Positions 5,389 through 31,450 of a DNA stretch of 64,000 nucleotides are shown here, piece after piece. The DNA comes from Minisyncoccota bacterium. GTDB taxonomy: Bacteria > Patescibacteriota > Minisyncoccia > Phycocordibacterales > Phycocordibacteraceae. Made by a program: the position numbers and the translations under genes. Under the pieces are notes generated by a model. It saw nothing but the letters and a program-made list of their open reading frames with translations, had not been told where the DNA came from and made no database searches. Each line of letters begins with the position of its first letter. Positions within the stretch are counted from its first letter, which is position 1. The stretch covers positions 47,132 through 111,131 of the forward strand of contig JAQVIY010000003.1 in NCBI GenBank assembly GCA_028695415.1, in the 5' to 3' direction.

Positions 5389-5459
5389 TGCGGGATCGTC
5401 TAATGGTAGGACGCGACCCTCTGGAGGTCGTTATCTTGGTTCGAATCCAGGTCCCGCAG
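5389..5459 (+). tRNA. tRNA-Gln (anticodon CUG)
   Basis: Cloverleaf read by hand. Acceptor TGCGGGA/TCCCGCA with the U1-A72 pair typical of bacterial tRNA-Gln. Anticodon loop CTCTGGA, T-arm CTTGG-TTCGAAT-CCAGG, no encoded CCA. Confidence 0.8.
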
Positions 5460-5704: not shown

Positions 5705-6970
5705 ATGCATATTTCACTTGTTGAATTTTCCGTTGAAAACTACAAGGTTTTCAAAGAACGGGCTGTTTTTTCTATGCTCGCTCGGAAAAACGATAAACAT
5801 ACGTTTGAGAGTAACGGCGAAAACCTGCTTAAAACATCCCTAATTTATGGGCCAAATGCGTCTGGAAAGACGTCTCTTTTGGATGCATTCAGCCTTATAA
5901 AGGCAGGTATTATTGTATCGGCAAATCTATCCACTAACCCCAAAGATCGTTTAGGAATTCCCTATTTTCCGTTTTTAGGGTTAAAAAACACCCAAACAGA
6001 ACCATCTAGTTTTGAAGTTGTATTTTCGACAAAAGGATCTTATAGCGGAGTTTACCGCTATGGTTTCTCGATTCTGCCTGATCGAATTACTAAGGAACAA
6101 ATGAGTGTTGTGCTTGCAAATGGGAAAGAGGAGATCCTTTTCTCCCGCACAGAACAAAAGATAGCGGTCTCTGGAAATGTGTTTGCTAGTGTTAAAGATC
6201 TTACGGAAACTACACGCAAAGAAGCACTCTTCCTCTCCACGGCAGCGCAAATTAACAACAAGTTTGCCCTAGGAATTGTTGGTGCATTTCGCGATATCAA
6301 TATAATCTCTGGAGTTCGTGGTCAGTATGAAGAGTTCACGATTAGGAAATTTAAAGAAGATCCTGAATACAAGACGCGAATCCTAGAGTATCTAAAAACT
6401 GCCGATTTTTGCATCTTTGATGGTCTAACGGAAGAAATTGATGTGCCGGCACTAGATGAAATAAAAGACGATGCTGATAGTTTCTCTGCAAGAAAACGAA
6501 TGGAGAAAGGAAACGTATTAATCTTCAAGCATCCTGTATACGGCGAAGATAAGAAAAAGATTGATGACTTTAAACTTCTCTTAGAGGACGAGTCGACAGG
6601 TACTCAAAAGTTTCTTTCTGTCCTTGGTCCAATTATTGACACCCTTATTGAAGGGAAAGTTTTGTTCATTGATGAATTCGATAATAGTCTTCATCCATTT
6701 CTGACAAAACTTACTATTGATCTCTTTGAGTCTAGTGAAATTAATAAGAAAGATGCTCAACTCATTGTAACAACGCATGATGTGAGTCTCTTGTCTTACA
6801 AAGATGACTTCATAAAAGATCAATTTTGGTTTACCGAAAAAGATGAACTTGGTGCAGCCAAACTTTTCTCTCTTGCGGAATTCAAACTAAGAAATGACAC
6901 GGAATTTTCGAAAAAGTACCTAGAGGGTCGCTTTGGGGCTCTGCCGTTTGTTATTCCGTTGGAAAAATAG
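5705..6970 (+). CDS. AAA/ABC-type ATPase of the AAA_21/AAA_15 class (AbiLi/RloA-like abortive-infection ATPase)
   Basis: 421 aa. Walker A GPNASGKTS near the N-terminus. C-terminal LFIDEFDNSLHP Walker B plus TTHD motif. AT-rich gene within about 250 nt of a tRNA 3' end. The next gene is RloB-like. Confidence 0.75.
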   Translation: MHISLVEFSVENYKVFKERAVFSMLARKNDKHTFESNGENLLKTSLIYGPNASGKTSLLDAFSLIKAGIIVSANLSTNPKDRLGIPYFPFLGLKNTQTEPSSFEVVFSTKGSYSGVYRYGFSILPDRITKEQMSVVLANGKEEILFSRTEQKIAVSGNVFASVKDLTETTRKEALFLSTAAQINNKFALGIVGAFRDINIISGVRGQYEEFTIRKFKEDPEYKTRILEYLKTADFCIFDGLTEEIDVPALDEIKDDADSFSARKRMEKGNVLIFKHPVYGEDKKKIDDFKLLLEDESTGTQKFLSVLGPIIDTLIEGKVLFIDEFDNSLHPFLTKLTIDLFESSEINKKDAQLIVTTHDVSLLSYKDDFIKDQFWFTEKDELGAAKLFSLAEFKLRNDTEFSKKYLEGRFGALPFVIPLEK

Positions 6971-8151: not shown

Positions 8152-8610
8152 TTGAAACTCAAAGAAAAAGAGTTAGACAAATTAGTTTCTCCCGAGTGGC
8201 CGAAAAGGCTCAGAGTGTACACGGGGAGCAAGTGGTTTTTAGCGCACGTTAGTCCTAAAGAAGTCGGTGTGTGGACGAGAGCGGGAGGCTTACCATTGCG
8301 GTGGACAAATAAGAGTCTTGCTGAAACTGCAGGTAAAGTAGCACGAGGGCTTGAAAGGAATTCAACGTCGATTAAACGGAGACCGAAACATGCAATACCG
8401 AATATTTTGAAAATAAAAGATCATTTGGAACAAAAAGAAAGGTACTTGTATCCTATCGTTTTTAAGACTGATACGGGGACAATGGGCAGAAAGAGATTGA
8501 AGAGAAAAATGGCTGGAGATATCGATGACGGCAATATGAGGTCTATTGCACTGGCAATGAACGGAAGAAACCCGATTACTGTGTATTTCGGTATTCCGTT
8601 TGAATCTTAG
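8152..8610 (+). CDS. hypothetical basic protein (TTG start; possibly non-coding)
   Basis: K/R-rich 152-aa ORF in an AT-rich stretch. No recognisable motifs. Confidence 0.2.
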   Translation: MKLKEKELDKLVSPEWPKRLRVYTGSKWFLAHVSPKEVGVWTRAGGLPLRWTNKSLAETAGKVARGLERNSTSIKRRPKHAIPNILKIKDHLEQKERYLYPIVFKTDTGTMGRKRLKRKMAGDIDDGNMRSIALAMNGRNPITVYFGIPFES

Positions 8611-17184: not shown

Positions 17185-17323
17185 GGTATCCAAGATTTGT
17201 ACCTATAGAGACAAGTTGTGGATAGTTCCTATACGGCTGATGGATACAGTCCCGAGTGCAGTGAATTGCTTCTACGTTCTAGGTGTGGCAGTATCACTGC
17301 AGAGCAATCCTGCCTGCAACCAA

Positions 17324-17893
17324 ATGGAGGTTTCCATGCAATTGATCCTTCCCAAGACGGTGCCGTCCTTCTCTTTCGTCAACGAGGCCTTGCCGCTCTT
17401 CTTTCTCGCGGGTCCTATCGGCGGGGGAGATGACTGGCACTTCAGGATGACCGAACTCCTTATGTCGCATTCTGCAGATTGCGTGATCGTGAACCCGACA
17501 CGCTACAAGCCGAACCATCCGCATTATCAGTATCGGGTGAGCGGTGATGATGACGTCTATACTCGGCAAACCGATTGGGAGCGCCGGTATATGTGTGACG
17601 CTGCCAAGGCGTCACTTCACGGCTGTCTCATCTTCTGGTTGCCGAAGGAGAGCGTAACGAATCCTCGCAGCGACGGGGAACCGTATGCGAGGGATACGCG
17701 CGGTGAGATCGCCGAATGGCGCACCCACCTCATGTATGACCGAAGCTTGCGTGTCGTGGTCGGGGCCGAAGAGGAGTTCCCTGGCTTGAGCGTTATCAGG
17801 AGGAATTTCGAGTTGACTATGTGCCCGGCGTTCCCTATCTATCGAACGATGGAAGAGGTGGCGGGCGCGGCAGTGAAGTTCGCCATGCGGTAA
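17324..17893 (+). CDS. nucleoside 2-deoxyribosyltransferase-like (NDT/SLOG-superfamily) protein
   Basis: LFFLAGPIGGGDDW Rossmann start and a DTRGEIAEW motif resembling the NDT catalytic Glu region. Assignment is tentative. Confidence 0.35.
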   Translation: MEVSMQLILPKTVPSFSFVNEALPLFFLAGPIGGGDDWHFRMTELLMSHSADCVIVNPTRYKPNHPHYQYRVSGDDDVYTRQTDWERRYMCDAAKASLHGCLIFWLPKESVTNPRSDGEPYARDTRGEIAEWRTHLMYDRSLRVVVGAEEEFPGLSVIRRNFELTMCPAFPIYRTMEEVAGAAVKFAMR

Positions 17894-18012
17894 GTTCGAC
17901 GTGAAGATCATTCGAGGCCCAACACGGGAACGTGTTGGGCCTCTACTTTATCCCCTGACTCTTGAGAAAGGTGGCGAATTTTTCGCCCCTTCGCATGCGG
18001 CAGAATGATTCG

Positions 18013-18534
18013 ATGCAAAAGAAGGGCAATAACTACGCTTTCATCGACAGTCAGAACGTGAACCTGGCCATTCGCGCACAGGGATGGAAGCTCGACTGGG
18101 AGCGCTTTCGCATATATCTCCGGGAGAAATACGGCGTGACAAAAGCATTCCTCTTCATCGGGTATGTCGAGGGTAATAATGAGTTGTATATCGCGCTGCA
18201 ATCGGCCGGCTTCATCTGCATCTTCAAGCCGACGCTCGAATATAAGGACGGAACGACCAAGGGGAACTGCGACGCCGAACTCGTTCTTCACGCGATGATC
18301 GAATATCCGAACTACGAGAAGGCGATCATCGTGACGGGCGACGGCGATTTCTATTGTCTGGTGCAACATCTGCTTGAGAAGGCGAAACTTCTTGCCGTCC
18401 TTATCCCCAACAGACTCACTTTCTCGGCGCTGCTCAAGTTTAAGGAATTTCGTCCGTACCTGCGGCACATGAACGATCTAGAGAATCTACTTGCATATAA
18501 AAAGAGAAGACCCTACGAGGACAGAACCTCGTAG
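18013..18534 (+). CDS. NYN-domain (LabA-like) protein
   Basis: AFIDSQNV...AFLFIGYV...KGNCDAELVLHAM...AIIVTGDGDF fits the NYN nuclease fold acidic motifs. Confidence 0.7.
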   Translation: MQKKGNNYAFIDSQNVNLAIRAQGWKLDWERFRIYLREKYGVTKAFLFIGYVEGNNELYIALQSAGFICIFKPTLEYKDGTTKGNCDAELVLHAMIEYPNYEKAIIVTGDGDFYCLVQHLLEKAKLLAVLIPNRLTFSALLKFKEFRPYLRHMNDLENLLAYKKRRPYEDRTS

Positions 18535-19363: not shown

Positions 19364-19381
19364 TAGGAATTGACATTCCTA
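19364..19381. promoter_or_regulatory. palindromic operator-like site overlapping a TTGACA -35 hexamer in the rsuA/DGR-target divergent promoter region
   Basis: TAGGAAT-TGAC-ATTCCTA perfect inverted repeat. TTGACA at 19370-19375 with a TATCCT-like -10 element 17 nt downstream. Confidence 0.3.
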
Positions 19382-19440
19382 TAAAGGTATGCTATCCTAG
19401 AGTGCAGGTGGCAGATCCTTATAACACAGTTTCAGTCCCA

Positions 19441-19521
19441 ATGAGACGAGCTTTTTACGGCTTACACCAGCAAGTAATTGCCGGTCATTTTTACAATTAG
19501 GCCGTAAAACGCTCGTCTCAT
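19441..19521 (+). promoter_or_regulatory. long hairpin (21-bp stem, 39-nt loop) in the 5' leader of the DGR target gene
   Basis: ATGAGACGAGCTTTTTACGGC ... GCCGTAAAACGCTCGTCTCAT with one mismatch. Ends 33 nt before the AAGGAG RBS and the ATG at 19562. Confidence 0.4.
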
Positions 19522-19561
19522 TCGAGACAAGTCGCTAGTCCCGACGGTTCGGGCAAGGAGA

Positions 19562-20359
19562 ATGATGATGACCGCGAGGATCACATCAGAGCAAGAGAAG
19601 CAATTCAATCGTTTCGTCGAGGACGCCATCAGCAAGGCGCGCAAAGAAGTCGATCCCGACAAGGATGGCCTCCAGCGGCTCATCGAGCGTGGGGGCGAGT
19701 TCCAGGCTTACGTCGTGGCTGGCATTGCACGTTTCGCTGCAAAAGCACCGGACTACGACCTGGCTCGAACCATTCTCGGCAAGGATTTCATTTCTCCCGA
19801 GGATATCATGAAGTCGCGCAGGGGGTTCATCTACACGGACGATCAGCTCGCGCAGTACGGCGACACTGTGCCTTCGCAAGAAGTGCTTGAGTGGTGTCGC
19901 GACAACGACTACATGCTCGTCGCTGGCCCCAACCGCCCTATGTCGCTCCTCGATGTCCGCGATCTCAAGCGCGACCACTTCTACTCGAAGGAAGGCGGCT
20001 GGTACGCGGAGCAGAAGTTCGCGGAGAACGACAAGGTTGATACTCGATGGGTCATGCTTCGCAAAGGGCCGGTTCTCAATTCGACCTCGAAGAACTGGAA
20101 TGAGCAGCAGACTCTCCTGTCCGAGACCGAGGTGACGCCCAACGTCGCCGGAGTCGCCTGGTGCGTTACCACGTACAAGGCGGTCAGGAACGTCTACTTG
20201 CTTCCGGGTGTCTACGTCCGCACTTCTTCGCTGGACTCGGACGGCGTTCGTGTGAGCGTCGGCAGCTTCGATGCCAGGGGTCTCCGCGTCAGCGGCGGCT
20301 GGGGCGGCCGCCGCGGCGATGGCCTCGGTCTCGCGTCTTCCCGGAAGACTGAAACTTGA
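19562..20359 (+). CDS. DGR variable (target) protein; C-terminal 38 codons form the variable repeat
   Basis: 265 aa with an AAGGAG RBS. 3' end carries the VR. Coding frame places TR adenines in AAC codons (NVNNNWDDNRS in TR versus RVSGGWGGRRG in VR). C-terminal DGLGLASSR tail could be the end of a C-type-lectin-fold ligand-binding domain. Confidence 0.75.
   Translation: MMMTARITSEQEKQFNRFVEDAISKARKEVDPDKDGLQRLIERGGEFQAYVVAGIARFAAKAPDYDLARTILGKDFISPEDIMKSRRGFIYTDDQLAQYGDTVPSQEVLEWCRDNDYMLVAGPNRPMSLLDVRDLKRDHFYSKEGGWYAEQKFAENDKVDTRWVMLRKGPVLNSTSKNWNEQQTLLSETEVTPNVAGVAWCVTTYKAVRNVYLLPGVYVRTSSLDSDGVRVSVGSFDARGLRVSGGWGGRRGDGLGLASSRKTET
20231..20344 (+). repeat. DGR variable repeat (VR), 114 bp
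   Basis: Differs from the TR at 16 positions. Every one of them is an adenine in the TR. The 3'-terminal 27 bp GATGGCCTCGGTCTCGCGTCTTCCCGG are identical to the TR (IMH-like). Confidence 0.85.
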
Positions 20360-20389
20360 TCTCTTGAGGACTTGTTCCTCTTGAATCCT

Positions 20390-20417
20390 CGACCACTTGC
20401 GCTTGCGCAAGTGGTCG
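20390..20417 (+). terminator. GC-rich hairpin 46 bp downstream of VR (terminator and/or DGR cis element)
   Basis: CGACCACTTGC-GCTTGC-GCAAGTGGTCG followed by a TTTTCTTT run. Confidence 0.55.
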
Positions 20418-20712
20418 TTTTCTTTGATATACTATTACGTATCACGCTAATGAAGGTCGGGTTACGGTTCGACCTCGCGGGATGTCTCACTTGAGATTCG
20501 CCAGAGTATCGTCGATCCACGGGTCACGATAGTGTGCGAAACAGGATAGAGATTCTAACTTCTTGCCCATTTTTTGAGAAGGTGTCCCTCGGGGCTGCTT
20601 CCGCAATACATTCAAGATTGAGAGGATATAGGCATGTGGCATAAGGCTCTGCGGTAACCCTCAAAGTCTGGTGCCGCGCACAAGCGGGTTATAGATGGAA
20701 ATGGGTAAACAA

Positions 20713-20826
20713 CTGGACTCGGACGGCAATCGTGTGAACGTCGGCAGCTTCGATGCCAAGGGTCTCAACGTCAACAACAACTGGGACGACAACCGCAGCG
20801 ATGGCCTCGGTCTCGCGTCTTCCCGG
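20713..20826 (+). repeat. DGR template repeat (TR), 114 bp, non-coding
   Basis: 24 adenines, 16 of them substituted in the VR. No non-adenine differences. The overlapping +strand ORF 20695-21024 is judged an artefact. Confidence 0.85.
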
Positions 20827-20846
20827 CAGTCGTTTCTCTATCTCGA

Positions 20847-20870
20847 AGAGACTCGCTCATGCGAGTCTCT
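20847..20870 (+). other. perfect 10-bp-stem hairpin 20 nt downstream of TR (overlaps the avd stop on the opposite strand)
   Basis: AGAGACTCGC-TCAT-GCGAGTCTCT followed by ATCGTTCTTT. Confidence 0.5.
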
Positions 20871-21222
20871 ATCGTTCTTTAGTAGAGCGAATCCAACCGC
20901 CGAGCATACGGCCAATCTCGTCAATATGAGTCTCAAGAACAAGATACTTCTTGTTGTCAATAGTCCTCATATCTTTCGTGAGGCGTATGAGAACGCGGAG
21001 CACATTCAACTGCACGCTTGCTGATTCAAGTACTGGCAATTTCTCCACTTTCCCCGATTGACTTGCAAGAAGTATCGCTTCAAGCACATCAAGAATACAA
21101 TTCTCACAACGTTGCCAGATTGTATATCGATCTTGCTTCGAAACATCACCGCGGTATCCGTAGAACGTCTTATACAGGTCGTAACACTTCTTAAAAATCG
21201 GTATATCTAGATTGTTAATCAT
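20869..21222 (-). CDS. avd: Avd-like accessory variability determinant (four-helix-bundle / 23S-rRNA-intervening-sequence protein family)
   Basis: 117 aa, helical and basic. The ...KQDRYTIWQRCEN... and C-terminal ...IDEIGRMLGGWIRS motifs match the Avd/four-helix-bundle family pattern. Sits between TR and RT. Start codon is back-to-back with the RT start (CATATG). Confidence 0.6.
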   Translation of the reverse strand: MINNLDIPIFKKCYDLYKTFYGYRGDVSKQDRYTIWQRCENCILDVLEAILLASQSGKVEKLPVLESASVQLNVLRVLIRLTKDMRTIDNKKYLVLETHIDEIGRMLGGWIRSTKER

Positions 21223-22299
21223 ATGAAGGTGTATAGGAACTTATTTGAATCAATAATCTCGACAGAGAATCTGTTCGAGGCGTGGGACGTGTTCAAACGC
21301 GACAAGAGGAATAGACCAGATGTCGAAAGATTCGAGAAGAATATCGAGCAAGAAGTATTCAATCTTTCGCATGAGCTTCGTACAAAAACGTATTGGCATG
21401 GGTCGTACTATGCTTTTCTGATTCGCGATCCAAAATTACGGAATATCAATAAGGCAACGGTGCGCGACCGAGTTCTGCATCATGCGATATTTAAGATTTT
21501 GAATCCTATTTTTGAACCAACCTTTATACTGACCTCCTTTTCTTGTCGTATCGGAAAAGGGACGCATAAGGGAGTGGAGTATTTGGCGAATTCGTTGCGG
21601 GCGGTGAGTCAGAATAATATCCATTCTTGTTTCGCATTGAAGTGCGATGTACGTAAGTTCTTCGACAGTATTGATCACGAAACCCTTCTCGGGGTTCTTA
21701 GGAGAAGGATTCTTGATGAAGACACGCTCTGGTTGCTCGATAATGTTATTAATAGTTACGAGACGGGCTTTACGAGAGAGAGAGAGAGAGAGAGAGAGAG
21801 TAAAAATGCGCCGAAAAAAGGCGTACCCATCGGCAATCTCACGAGCCAGCTTTTTGCCAATATCTATATGAATGAGTTGGATCAATTTGTGAAGCATGAA
21901 TTGCGAGTGAAATATTATGCGCGGTATACGGATGACTTTGTAATCCTATCAGATGACCGGGCATATCTAGAGAGTCTTATTCCGCAAATAGCAGGATTCT
22001 TGAAAACGCGATTGTCACTGTCGCTCCACCCAGACAAAGTCTTCATTCGGAAATACAATCAGGGTATAGACTTCCTCGGCTACGTCATTTTGCCGAAACA
22101 TGTAAGAGTGCGGACTCAGACGCGAAGACGGATTTTCAAAAAGATGCGTAAACAGGTTGTTTTGTTCAAGAACGGAATCATCGGTAAACCGACGTTGCTT
22201 GGTTCCTTAAACTCATATCTCGGCGTGTTATCTCATGCAGATGCCTACGAGCTGTCCGAAGATCTCAAAAATCAATTCTGGTTCTGGATGAACGATTAA
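21223..22299 (+). CDS. DGR reverse transcriptase
   Basis: 358 aa. RT motif C YTDDFVIL. The DGR-diagnostic IGNLTSQLFANIYMNELDQFVK motif (IGxxxSQ replaces the group-II QGxxxSP). N-terminal ENLFEAWDVFKRDKRN region matches the DGR RT pattern. Adjacent to TR and avd. Confidence 0.9.
   Translation: MKVYRNLFESIISTENLFEAWDVFKRDKRNRPDVERFEKNIEQEVFNLSHELRTKTYWHGSYYAFLIRDPKLRNINKATVRDRVLHHAIFKILNPIFEPTFILTSFSCRIGKGTHKGVEYLANSLRAVSQNNIHSCFALKCDVRKFFDSIDHETLLGVLRRRILDEDTLWLLDNVINSYETGFTRERERERESKNAPKKGVPIGNLTSQLFANIYMNELDQFVKHELRVKYYARYTDDFVILSDDRAYLESLIPQIAGFLKTRLSLSLHPDKVFIRKYNQGIDFLGYVILPKHVRVRTQTRRRIFKKMRKQVVLFKNGIIGKPTLLGSLNSYLGVLSHADAYELSEDLKNQFWFWMND
21774..21800 (+). repeat. (GA)13 dinucleotide microsatellite inside the RT ORF (encodes RERERERES)
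   Basis: 27 nt of uninterrupted GA repeats read directly from the sequence. In frame as written. Confidence 0.95.
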
Positions 22300-31042: not shown

Positions 31043-31450
31043 GGGGGTGACCGGCTTTGACGGTCTGTACTTTGAAAGACGTGCGACGCAGTGCACTCTC
31101 GCCTACCACTCTAATCTAGCGAGAAAACATACTTGCAAAGAACACTCTAGCAAGCGTGAAGTCCCCGTACTTCGGTATGAAGGACTTTGCGTTCGCCTAC
31201 GCGGCAGCCTAACGGCTCCTCGCCTATGCGACGTCTGACCTTTCCGGTTCTCCAGGGGAAGTCTCGGGCGGAATCATCTGGAGCATCGATACCCGGTCTC
31301 CCGCCCGGTGCATCTAAATAAGGGATCGGGCAGGAATGGTTTTGTCGACGTTCCTCGCATCCTGCCGTAGACTCTAACGTCGACTATGCGTCGTAGACTC
31401 GCTTTCATAGCCAGGCTCGGACTCGGGTTCGATTCCCGACATCTCCACCA
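31043..31450 (+). ncRNA. ssrA: tmRNA (ssrA)
   Basis: 5' GGGGGTGACCGGCTTTGACGG resembles the tmRNA 5' end. 3' tRNA-like domain GGGTTCGATTCCC...CATCTCCACCA with encoded CCA. Acceptor pairing GGGGGTG/CATCTCC. Internal tag-like reading frame ends ...DFAFAYAAA-TAA at 31210-31212. Downstream of smpB. Confidence 0.75.

Follow-up and report, generated by a model that had tools for sequence, protein, structure and literature searches.

The stretch analysed here, 64,000 nt of contig JAQVIY010000003.1 from a Minisyncoccota genome assembly (GCA_028695415.1) and hereafter called the window, carries a diversity-generating retroelement (DGR). Its target gene, which ends in a variable repeat (VR), is followed by a template repeat (TR) in non-coding DNA, the gene for the accessory variability determinant (avd) on the opposite strand, and a reverse transcriptase (RT) gene (Table 1). 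A structured RNA domain lies directly upstream of the TR; the gene for the RT contains a perfect dinucleotide tract. Target and RT proteins identical to those encoded here are on record from a metagenome-assembled genome (MAG) of Candidatus Pacebacteria ('Paceibacterota'). The original prediction, made by a model from the letters alone, was that the locus is a complete DGR; its adenine-only repeats, an RT resembling that of a Bordetella phage, the Avd protein and a target with a C-type lectin (CLec) fold all held up.

Table 1. Features of the retroelement and its immediate flanks, in window coordinates
Feature	Position	Strand	Description
Promoter-like site	19370..19398	+	TTGACA-17-TATCCT with TG, from a consensus scan; upstream of the target gene; putative
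Long hairpin in target 5' leader	19440..19522	+	Inverted repeat; lower stem TGAGACGAG/CTCGTCTCA
Target (variable) protein gene	19562..20359	+	265 aa; N-terminal helical region and C-terminal CLec fold
VR	20231..20344	+	Covers the final 38 codons of the CLec domain; TR-adenine codons match the hypervariable columns of the alignment
IMH-like 3' end of VR (IMH, initiation of mutagenic homing)	20316..20344	+	G+C-rich, 29 nt identical to TR; putative role, by analogy with the IMH of phage BPP-1
Post-VR element	20355..20389	+	Small hairpin, GAGGA-CTTGT-TCCTC (20366-20380), amid CTTGA motifs that recur at intervals of about 8 nt
Intrinsic-terminator-like hairpin	20390..20425	+	12 bp and a T run; predicted to end the target transcript; equivalent hairpin in relatives
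-10-like box TATACT for TR RNA	20428..20433	+	Putative; aligned with TATAAT/TATACT-type hexamers of relatives
Structured RNA domain directly 5' of TR	20441..20712	+	About 270 nt, 10 helices; covariation
TR	20713..20826	+	24 adenines, at codon positions 1/2
TR 3' element	20827..20880	+	CAGTCnnnnCTCTATC (conserved), followed by a hairpin of 10-17 bp (20847-20870) and a tail rich in U; abuts and overlaps the stop codon of avd, which is on the opposite strand
avd (accessory variability determinant)	20869..21222	-	117 aa
DGR RT gene	21223..22299	+	358 aa; RVT_1 domain; IGNLTSQ and YTDD
Perfect (GA)13.5 tract	21774..21800	+	Within the RT gene, in the loop that precedes motif 4; encodes RERERERE; in frame (ON)

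Repeats and proteins of the retroelement

Alignment of the two 114-nt repeats was gapless and contained 16 mismatches, every one of them at an adenine of the TR, with no difference at any other base. The TR holds 24 adenines in total, and the chance of 16 randomly placed mismatches all landing on these 24 sites is 5.7e-14. The recount agrees with the original prediction on the repeat length, the mismatches and the number of adenines. Both repeats start sharply (20231 and 20713) and end at the first non-adenine difference (A at 20345, C at 20827). Their 3' ends had been given as identical over 27 bp; the identity was correct, and its length is 29 nt, with no mismatch between an IMH and an IMH* version. 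In the target frame, all 24 adenines occupy the first or the second codon position. According to the earlier claim, the TR adenines sit in AAC codons, which can vary without creating stops, but one TR codon is AAG, in which an A-to-T change gives TAG, so that the design is not wholly stop-proof. The TR-to-VR changes comprised 13 A-to-G, two A-to-C and one A-to-T. A-to-G was also the commonest class in most related loci, and this bias could reflect the misincorporation spectrum of the RT or selection for Gly, Asp and Ser codons. A third repeat copy, a second VR or a remote target was not found in the 64-kb window.

The target(+)-TR-avd(-)-RT(+) cassette recurs in unrelated neighbourhoods of other candidate phyla radiation (CPR) genomes, and in 15 related loci that have this layout and belong to the same target family, the TR/VR mismatches were again adenine-only. 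Within clusters of the target family formed at 90% identity, nearly all differences fell inside the VR, which indicates that the family is being diversified in nature; the cluster holding the window's own target has one member. Recent activity of the DGR at this locus is suggested by that VR-only variation in the family together with the lack of any non-adenine divergence between the two repeats here.

The open reading frame (ORF) proposed for the target was recovered, although the corresponding NCBI protein starts two codons later (19568) and has 263 aa. In the predicted structure, the C-terminal half is a C-type lectin with a pLDDT (predicted local distance difference test) of 90, in line with the earlier suggestion that the tail may close such a fold, and the model places the VR at the C-terminus of the fold, the position by which DGR targets are recognised. 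The N-terminus, read by eye, is hydrophilic with no apparent export signal. Over 350 proteins from CPR metagenomes, each about 262 aa long, make up the family. The target matched no Pfam or NCBIfam model, and scans of each family member at E<=1 and of the family profile against PDB sequences returned noise only. A comparison with CLec and formylglycine-generating enzyme (FGE)-sulfatase profiles, proposed at the outset, was likewise negative, with no match to Pfam FGE-sulfatase or DUF1566. Unlike Treponema denticola TvpA and Thermus aquaticus TaqVP, which have an FGE-type CLec fold (2y3c, 5vf4) and no detectable sequence similarity to it, the target here shows no apparent lipoprotein or signal sequence, and its N-terminal helical region matches nothing.

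Two side observations concern this gene family. A close homologue (72% identical) lies at 6001-6786 of a related locus on a 553-kb contig (L002) with no TR, avd or RT within 6 kb; it is either orphaned or served as a target from a distance. The G+C content of the target gene is 50-64% across loci whatever the composition of the host, about 10-20 points above that of avd and RT and, in most loci, also about 10-20 points above the flanking genome; here the values are 60% for the target, 43% for avd and RT, and 54-55% for the flanks.

The Avd-like gene anticipated on the opposite strand passed both profiles applied, the NCBIfam equivalog NF033474 (DivGenRetAVD; 82.4 bits, cutoff 80) and Pfam bAvd (4e-18; 66 bits, cutoff 40). 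The gene is divergent from that of the RT in 165 of 167 related loci with an Avd match. At this locus the two start codons abut on opposite strands (CAT followed directly by ATG, 21220-21225), and the gap in relatives is 0-4 nt. Accordingly, either each gene holds the promoter and ribosome-binding region of the other, or the two mRNAs have no leader.

The IGNLTSQ and YTDD motifs attributed to the RT are both present in the 358-aa ORF. Its best solved relative is the Bordetella phage RT (bRT) of the bRT-Avd complex (8ub7_A, E 5.8e-42), compared with 3e-19 for group II intron RTs. It could be argued that the 114-nt repeats are not part of a DGR but the remnant of a duplication or gene conversion beside an unrelated group II intron or retron RT, given that NCBI annotates the protein as 'reverse transcriptase/maturase family protein' and that it partially matches the group II RT/maturase model TIGR04416. 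That match (140.5 bits) is, however, far under the cutoff of 300, and bRT is ahead by 23 orders of magnitude in E-value. The protein also failed the retron RT model (53 bits, cutoff 235) and the models of defence-associated RTs (DRTs), and Rfam placed neither a group II intron RNA nor a retron RNA (msr/msd) family at the locus. An identity as group II intron or retron RT, the outcome which the original prediction had itself named as damaging, was rejected on the two failed cutoffs, the missing intron and retron RNAs and the far closer match to bRT. With Avd next door and the improbable adenine-only pattern recurring in 15 related loci, we give the remnant explanation practically no credence.

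The RT has thousands of close CPR homologues, and its relatives come almost entirely from CPR MAGs. DGRs of CPR bacteria (Patescibacteria) are reportedly the subject of work by Paul et al. in 2017. The present cassette was compared with a clade of cellular DGRs restricted to Patescibacteria (clade 2), whose targets lack recognizable transmembrane segments, signals or other conserved domains (Roux et al. 2021; PMC8144416). Located on a Patescibacteria chromosome and having a target without a recognized domain, the DGR appears to belong to clade 2, judging from the sources of its homologues and from the description of the clade. It shares with CPR DGRs the cellular and chromosomal setting, the domain-less target and the target-TR-avd(-)-RT(+) layout, and no difference was found in the core. 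Because Roux et al. (2021) describe exactly such a clade, the core finding adds a member to a known kind of DGR. By itself it would be a routine extra member of a well-catalogued clade; the dinucleotide tract and the structured RNA raise its interest.

The dinucleotide tract in the reverse transcriptase gene

The (GA)13.5 tract is the only long simple-sequence repeat (SSR) in the 64 kb, and its unit is not divisible by three. The loop in which it lies is inserted relative to bRT, and its length and sequence differ widely from one homologue to another. Repeats of the form (RE)2-6 occupied the same loop in 25 of the best 120 RT homologues and were GA-coded in the loci whose DNA was read. A metagenome scan for (GA)7G followed by PIGNLT codons yielded at least 120 stretches from many projects. 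Among the matches listed, to which the allele counts in this section refer, RT genes with (GA)>=7.5 and both halves placeable were in frame in 18 of 98 cases, in the +1 frame in 46 and in the +2 frame in 34. When both halves were complete (n=60), 11 genes were in frame and 49 were out of frame at the tract, and all 49 of these OFF alleles had kept YxDD and were free of stops in both halves. Where the flanks are identical, the length of the tract alone sets the frame: genes with 27 nt, as in the window and in L153, are in frame, and those with 31, 25, 23 or 17 nt are not, as three-frame translations directly show. Two loci with 18 nt (L088 and L118, out) and one with 20 nt (L108, in) are 99.8% identical over 1029 nt and one GA unit apart. 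The OFF loci L089, L090, L147 and L006 have adenine-only TR/VR pairs with no non-adenine mismatch, and L107 has one non-adenine mismatch. Between OFF alleles, dN/dS was about 0.10, as estimated from the 5-8 usable pairs, most pairs being saturated.

Other irregularities were seen in related loci. In L006, a Kaiserbacteria DGR of the same family, the same RT loop has a G10 run (8215-8250), at which the RT gene is frameshifted and has been called as two genes, of 206 and 160 aa. In L103, (GA)8.5 is directly followed by G10, so different kinds of simple repeat accumulate in one RT loop. The RT genes of L159 and L193 are 99.5% identical and differ by one GA unit and by a CT indel about 25 nt upstream (tttttCTaatt versus tttttCTCTaatt); their net frame is the same because the two differences combine, and the indel may be a compensating slip. 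One metagenome scaffold (L140, 586-772) has two copies of the tract region, separated by about 120 nt and joined across an NN, which looks like an assembly artefact from tract variants in the sample.

Because the frame moves whenever a GA unit is added or removed, the tract is most likely a stochastic, reversible ON/OFF switch. The frame pattern, as read from the sequences, looks like the signature of a contingency locus, and slippage may be used as a switch rather than tolerated as noise. The most likely interpretation of the tract, and one that we consider probable, is phase variation of the RT through this SSR. We also incline, by a narrower measure of confidence, to the view that the RT is a contingency gene in a large part of the CPR DGR clade, the present locus included, where a hypermutable (GA)n, or poly-G in some lineages, would toggle it ON and OFF by slippage. 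For the locus as a whole, it is very likely that the window holds an intact, chromosomal DGR of the CPR clade in Candidatus Pacebacteria, working by a route like that of Bordetella phage BPP-1, with the RT tract as its most likely switch.

The tract resembles the SSR contingency loci of Neisseria, Haemophilus and Campylobacter (PMC3315296, PMC6321876) in being a long, perfect, intragenic, non-triplet repeat, in having ON and OFF alleles that are otherwise intact, and in differing in length between near-identical sequences. In contrast, the known cases mostly concern surface structures or restriction-modification enzymes rather than the mutator enzyme of a targeted hypermutation system, and the hosts here are non-pathogenic CPR bacteria.

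Several points weigh against this account. The locus itself offers one assembled allele, which is simply intact and, taken alone, would be an RT with an odd RE-rich loop. Contig ends were not enriched near the tract (19 observed, 16.2 expected), and the assemblies therefore give no sign of within-sample tract heterogeneity. In-frame alleles were rarer than the one third expected by chance (p ~0.001). Either something further has to be assumed, for example that the ON state is costly, or the DNA frame may not be what decides expression; the depletion fits either an ON-state cost or recoding. The comparison set of SSR-less RT genes, in which 83 of 84 were in frame, was drawn from L001-L086, ranked by tblastn score, and is biased towards intact genes, so that the unbroken halves of the OFF genes were relied on instead as an internal control. 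Finally, no sigma-70-type promoter for the TR RNA passed a strict scan, the TATACT box in Table 1 included.

The depletion of in-frame alleles leads to an alternative in which the tract is a recoding site where RNA polymerase or the ribosome slips, some transcripts being in frame whatever the genomic length and the DGR being always weakly on. Such a site would agree with a repeat that reads RE or ER in all three frames without stops, with a genomic frame that is near random and depleted of in-frame alleles (18/46/34), as if the DNA frame were unselected, and with the two intact halves of all 49 complete OFF alleles. However, many tracts run straight into TAA, which ends one shifted frame at once, and tract length differs between near-identical genes, so slippage of the DNA at least happens. 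Efficient transcriptional slippage is not known from dinucleotide tracts, the known bacterial cases using A/T homopolymers. Recoding is regarded as distinctly improbable.

It is also unlikely, though less so, that the tract has no function and amounts to microsatellite noise in a loop that permits it, with OFF alleles being dying RT genes and the window containing a still-intact, ordinary DGR. The loop is indeed an insertion relative to bRT and highly variable among homologues, most of which lack the tract, and CPR genomes may lack mismatch repair. Dying genes would nevertheless be hard to reconcile with the absence of stops and the kept YxDD in 49 of 49 complete OFF alleles, with the low dN/dS between OFF alleles (few usable pairs), or with the adenine-only TR/VR pairs that OFF loci keep. 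Moreover, a neutral tract in a dead gene should gain interruptions, whereas perfect tracts of 15-51 nt were found in at least 120 contigs from many projects. Phase variation by slippage of the tract is preferred to both recoding and noise.

Structured RNA, flanking elements and genomic setting

The 270 nt from about position 20441 to the TR are strongly conserved among related loci, and a 12-bp long-range helix closes just before the TR. For this domain, RNAalifold predicted 66 pairs, 34 of them with compensatory changes. Paired cells reached 97.6%, compared with 87% in shuffles and 36-50% when the partner was slid, and none of 500 shuffles attained the observed values; the fold is supported by these covariation statistics. 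A covariance model of the first 125 nt (R1, matches counted at E<0.01) matched 81 of 200 related loci, including many with other target families; in those of the loci that were fetched in RT orientation, the matches lay about 650-850 nt upstream of the RT start and on the RT strand. On the other side of the TR, a hairpin with different stem sequences was found at the same place in 15 of 15 loci when each sequence was folded alone, and a terminator-like scan also called it. MAFFT and RNAalifold recovered 5 pairs only for this hairpin because indels blurred the alignment.

Rfam contained no family for any RNA element of the cassette. In the literature found, to which Paul et al. 2017 did not belong, no paper linked DGRs with SSRs or phase variation, and the accounts of CPR DGRs included neither a frame-setting (GA)n tract, nor a structured RNA 5' of the TR, nor a hairpin in the 5' leader of the target. 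The structured RNA around the TR and the frame-setting tract in the RT appear to be undescribed features common to much of the CPR DGR clade.

The DGR of BPP-1 (Mtd, Avd, TR and bRT; 8ub7-8ube, 1yu0, 4dwl) is a further point of comparison. Both systems combine an adenine-specific flow from TR to VR with an I-G-x-L-T-S-Q motif 4, an Avd partner, a VR at the CLec C-terminus, a G+C-rich 3' end common to the two repeats and, downstream of the VR, a hairpin, the last two being candidate homing elements in the present DGR. The published DGR RNA motif that was found, RT-10, is the TR-RT spacer of BPP-1 (PMC5737381), so the functional RNA element of that phage lies 3' of the TR, whereas here the large structure is 5' and a short hairpin 3'. 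Further differences are that the VR and TR ends of the present DGR show no IMH/IMH* mismatches, that its target is small and without an apparent export signal rather than a phage tail fibre, and that bRT lacks the loop which holds the (GA)n tract.

The flanks of the target gene are also patterned. The leader hairpin, whose lower stem hardly varies while its top is variable, precedes the target gene in 15 of 17 family loci. It is followed on its 3' side by GAGAC, a small hairpin CCCGACGGTTCGGG (19540-19553) and a ribosome-binding site (19555-19560), an arrangement kept in 15 of the 17 loci. For the hairpin, a role as regulator site, as RNase III site or as DNA cruciform is conceivable. An Rfam match of this hairpin to mir-208 was dismissed as chance (E 0.08, far below gathering). 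Downstream of the VR, the run of CTTGA motifs is common to all relatives, with a small hairpin whose sequence varies and whose flanks are kept, and the terminator hairpin then follows. The small hairpin is a candidate target-recognition hairpin or cruciform.

The cassette lies among housekeeping genes, as had been noted originally, with a pseudouridine synthase, an ABC-F ATPase, and NYN and MFS proteins encoded nearby. The NYN-domain gene (putative RNase; 17962-18534) is located just upstream, and an ORF before it (17216-17893) gave weak matches to nucleoside 2-deoxyribosyltransferase-like and zeta-toxin families. Elsewhere in the window there are a tmRNA gene (31043-31450) and five tRNA genes (at 5389, 33918, 57927, 58833 and 59218), which are ordinary and unrelated to the DGR.

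Proposed mechanism and its implications

By analogy with BPP-1, the following course of events might be expected at this locus. An RNA of about 440 nt would be transcribed from about 20441 to 20880, comprising the 270-nt structured 5' domain, the 114-nt TR and the 3' hairpin. The complex of RT and Avd would bind this RNA and copy the TR into cDNA, misincorporating opposite template adenines. The VR, with which the target gene ends, would then be replaced by the cDNA, and the G+C-rich 3' end common to both repeats would probably act as a guide, together with the hairpin element after the VR. In this way, up to 24 adenine positions, at codon positions 1 and 2, could be rewritten on what would be the ligand-binding face of the CLec fold. 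With the (GA)13.5 tract in a surface loop of the RT, replication slippage by one GA unit would shift the frame and switch mutagenesis ON or OFF, the allele in the window being ON.

If the slippage switch operates in this manner, it would provide a sequence-checkable hypothesis for how mutagenic homing is regulated and its cost contained. Tract lengths can be counted in any metagenome, and the ON/OFF state can be compared with the turnover of the VR. The 5' RNA, the hairpin 3' of the TR and the post-VR element offer defined parts for the recognition of RNA and target by RT and Avd in a gene order other than that of Bordetella. Surveys that demand an intact RT probably undercount these DGRs, because gene callers split OFF alleles into two ORFs, as happened in L006. 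A switch of this kind would also explain why many environmental DGRs look 'broken' and yet are conserved. Targeted protein hypermutation would itself be phase-variable, so that CPR bacteria carrying such a DGR could diversify the target while the RT is ON and lock in a useful variant when it is OFF, which would amount to a second-order switch of evolvability.

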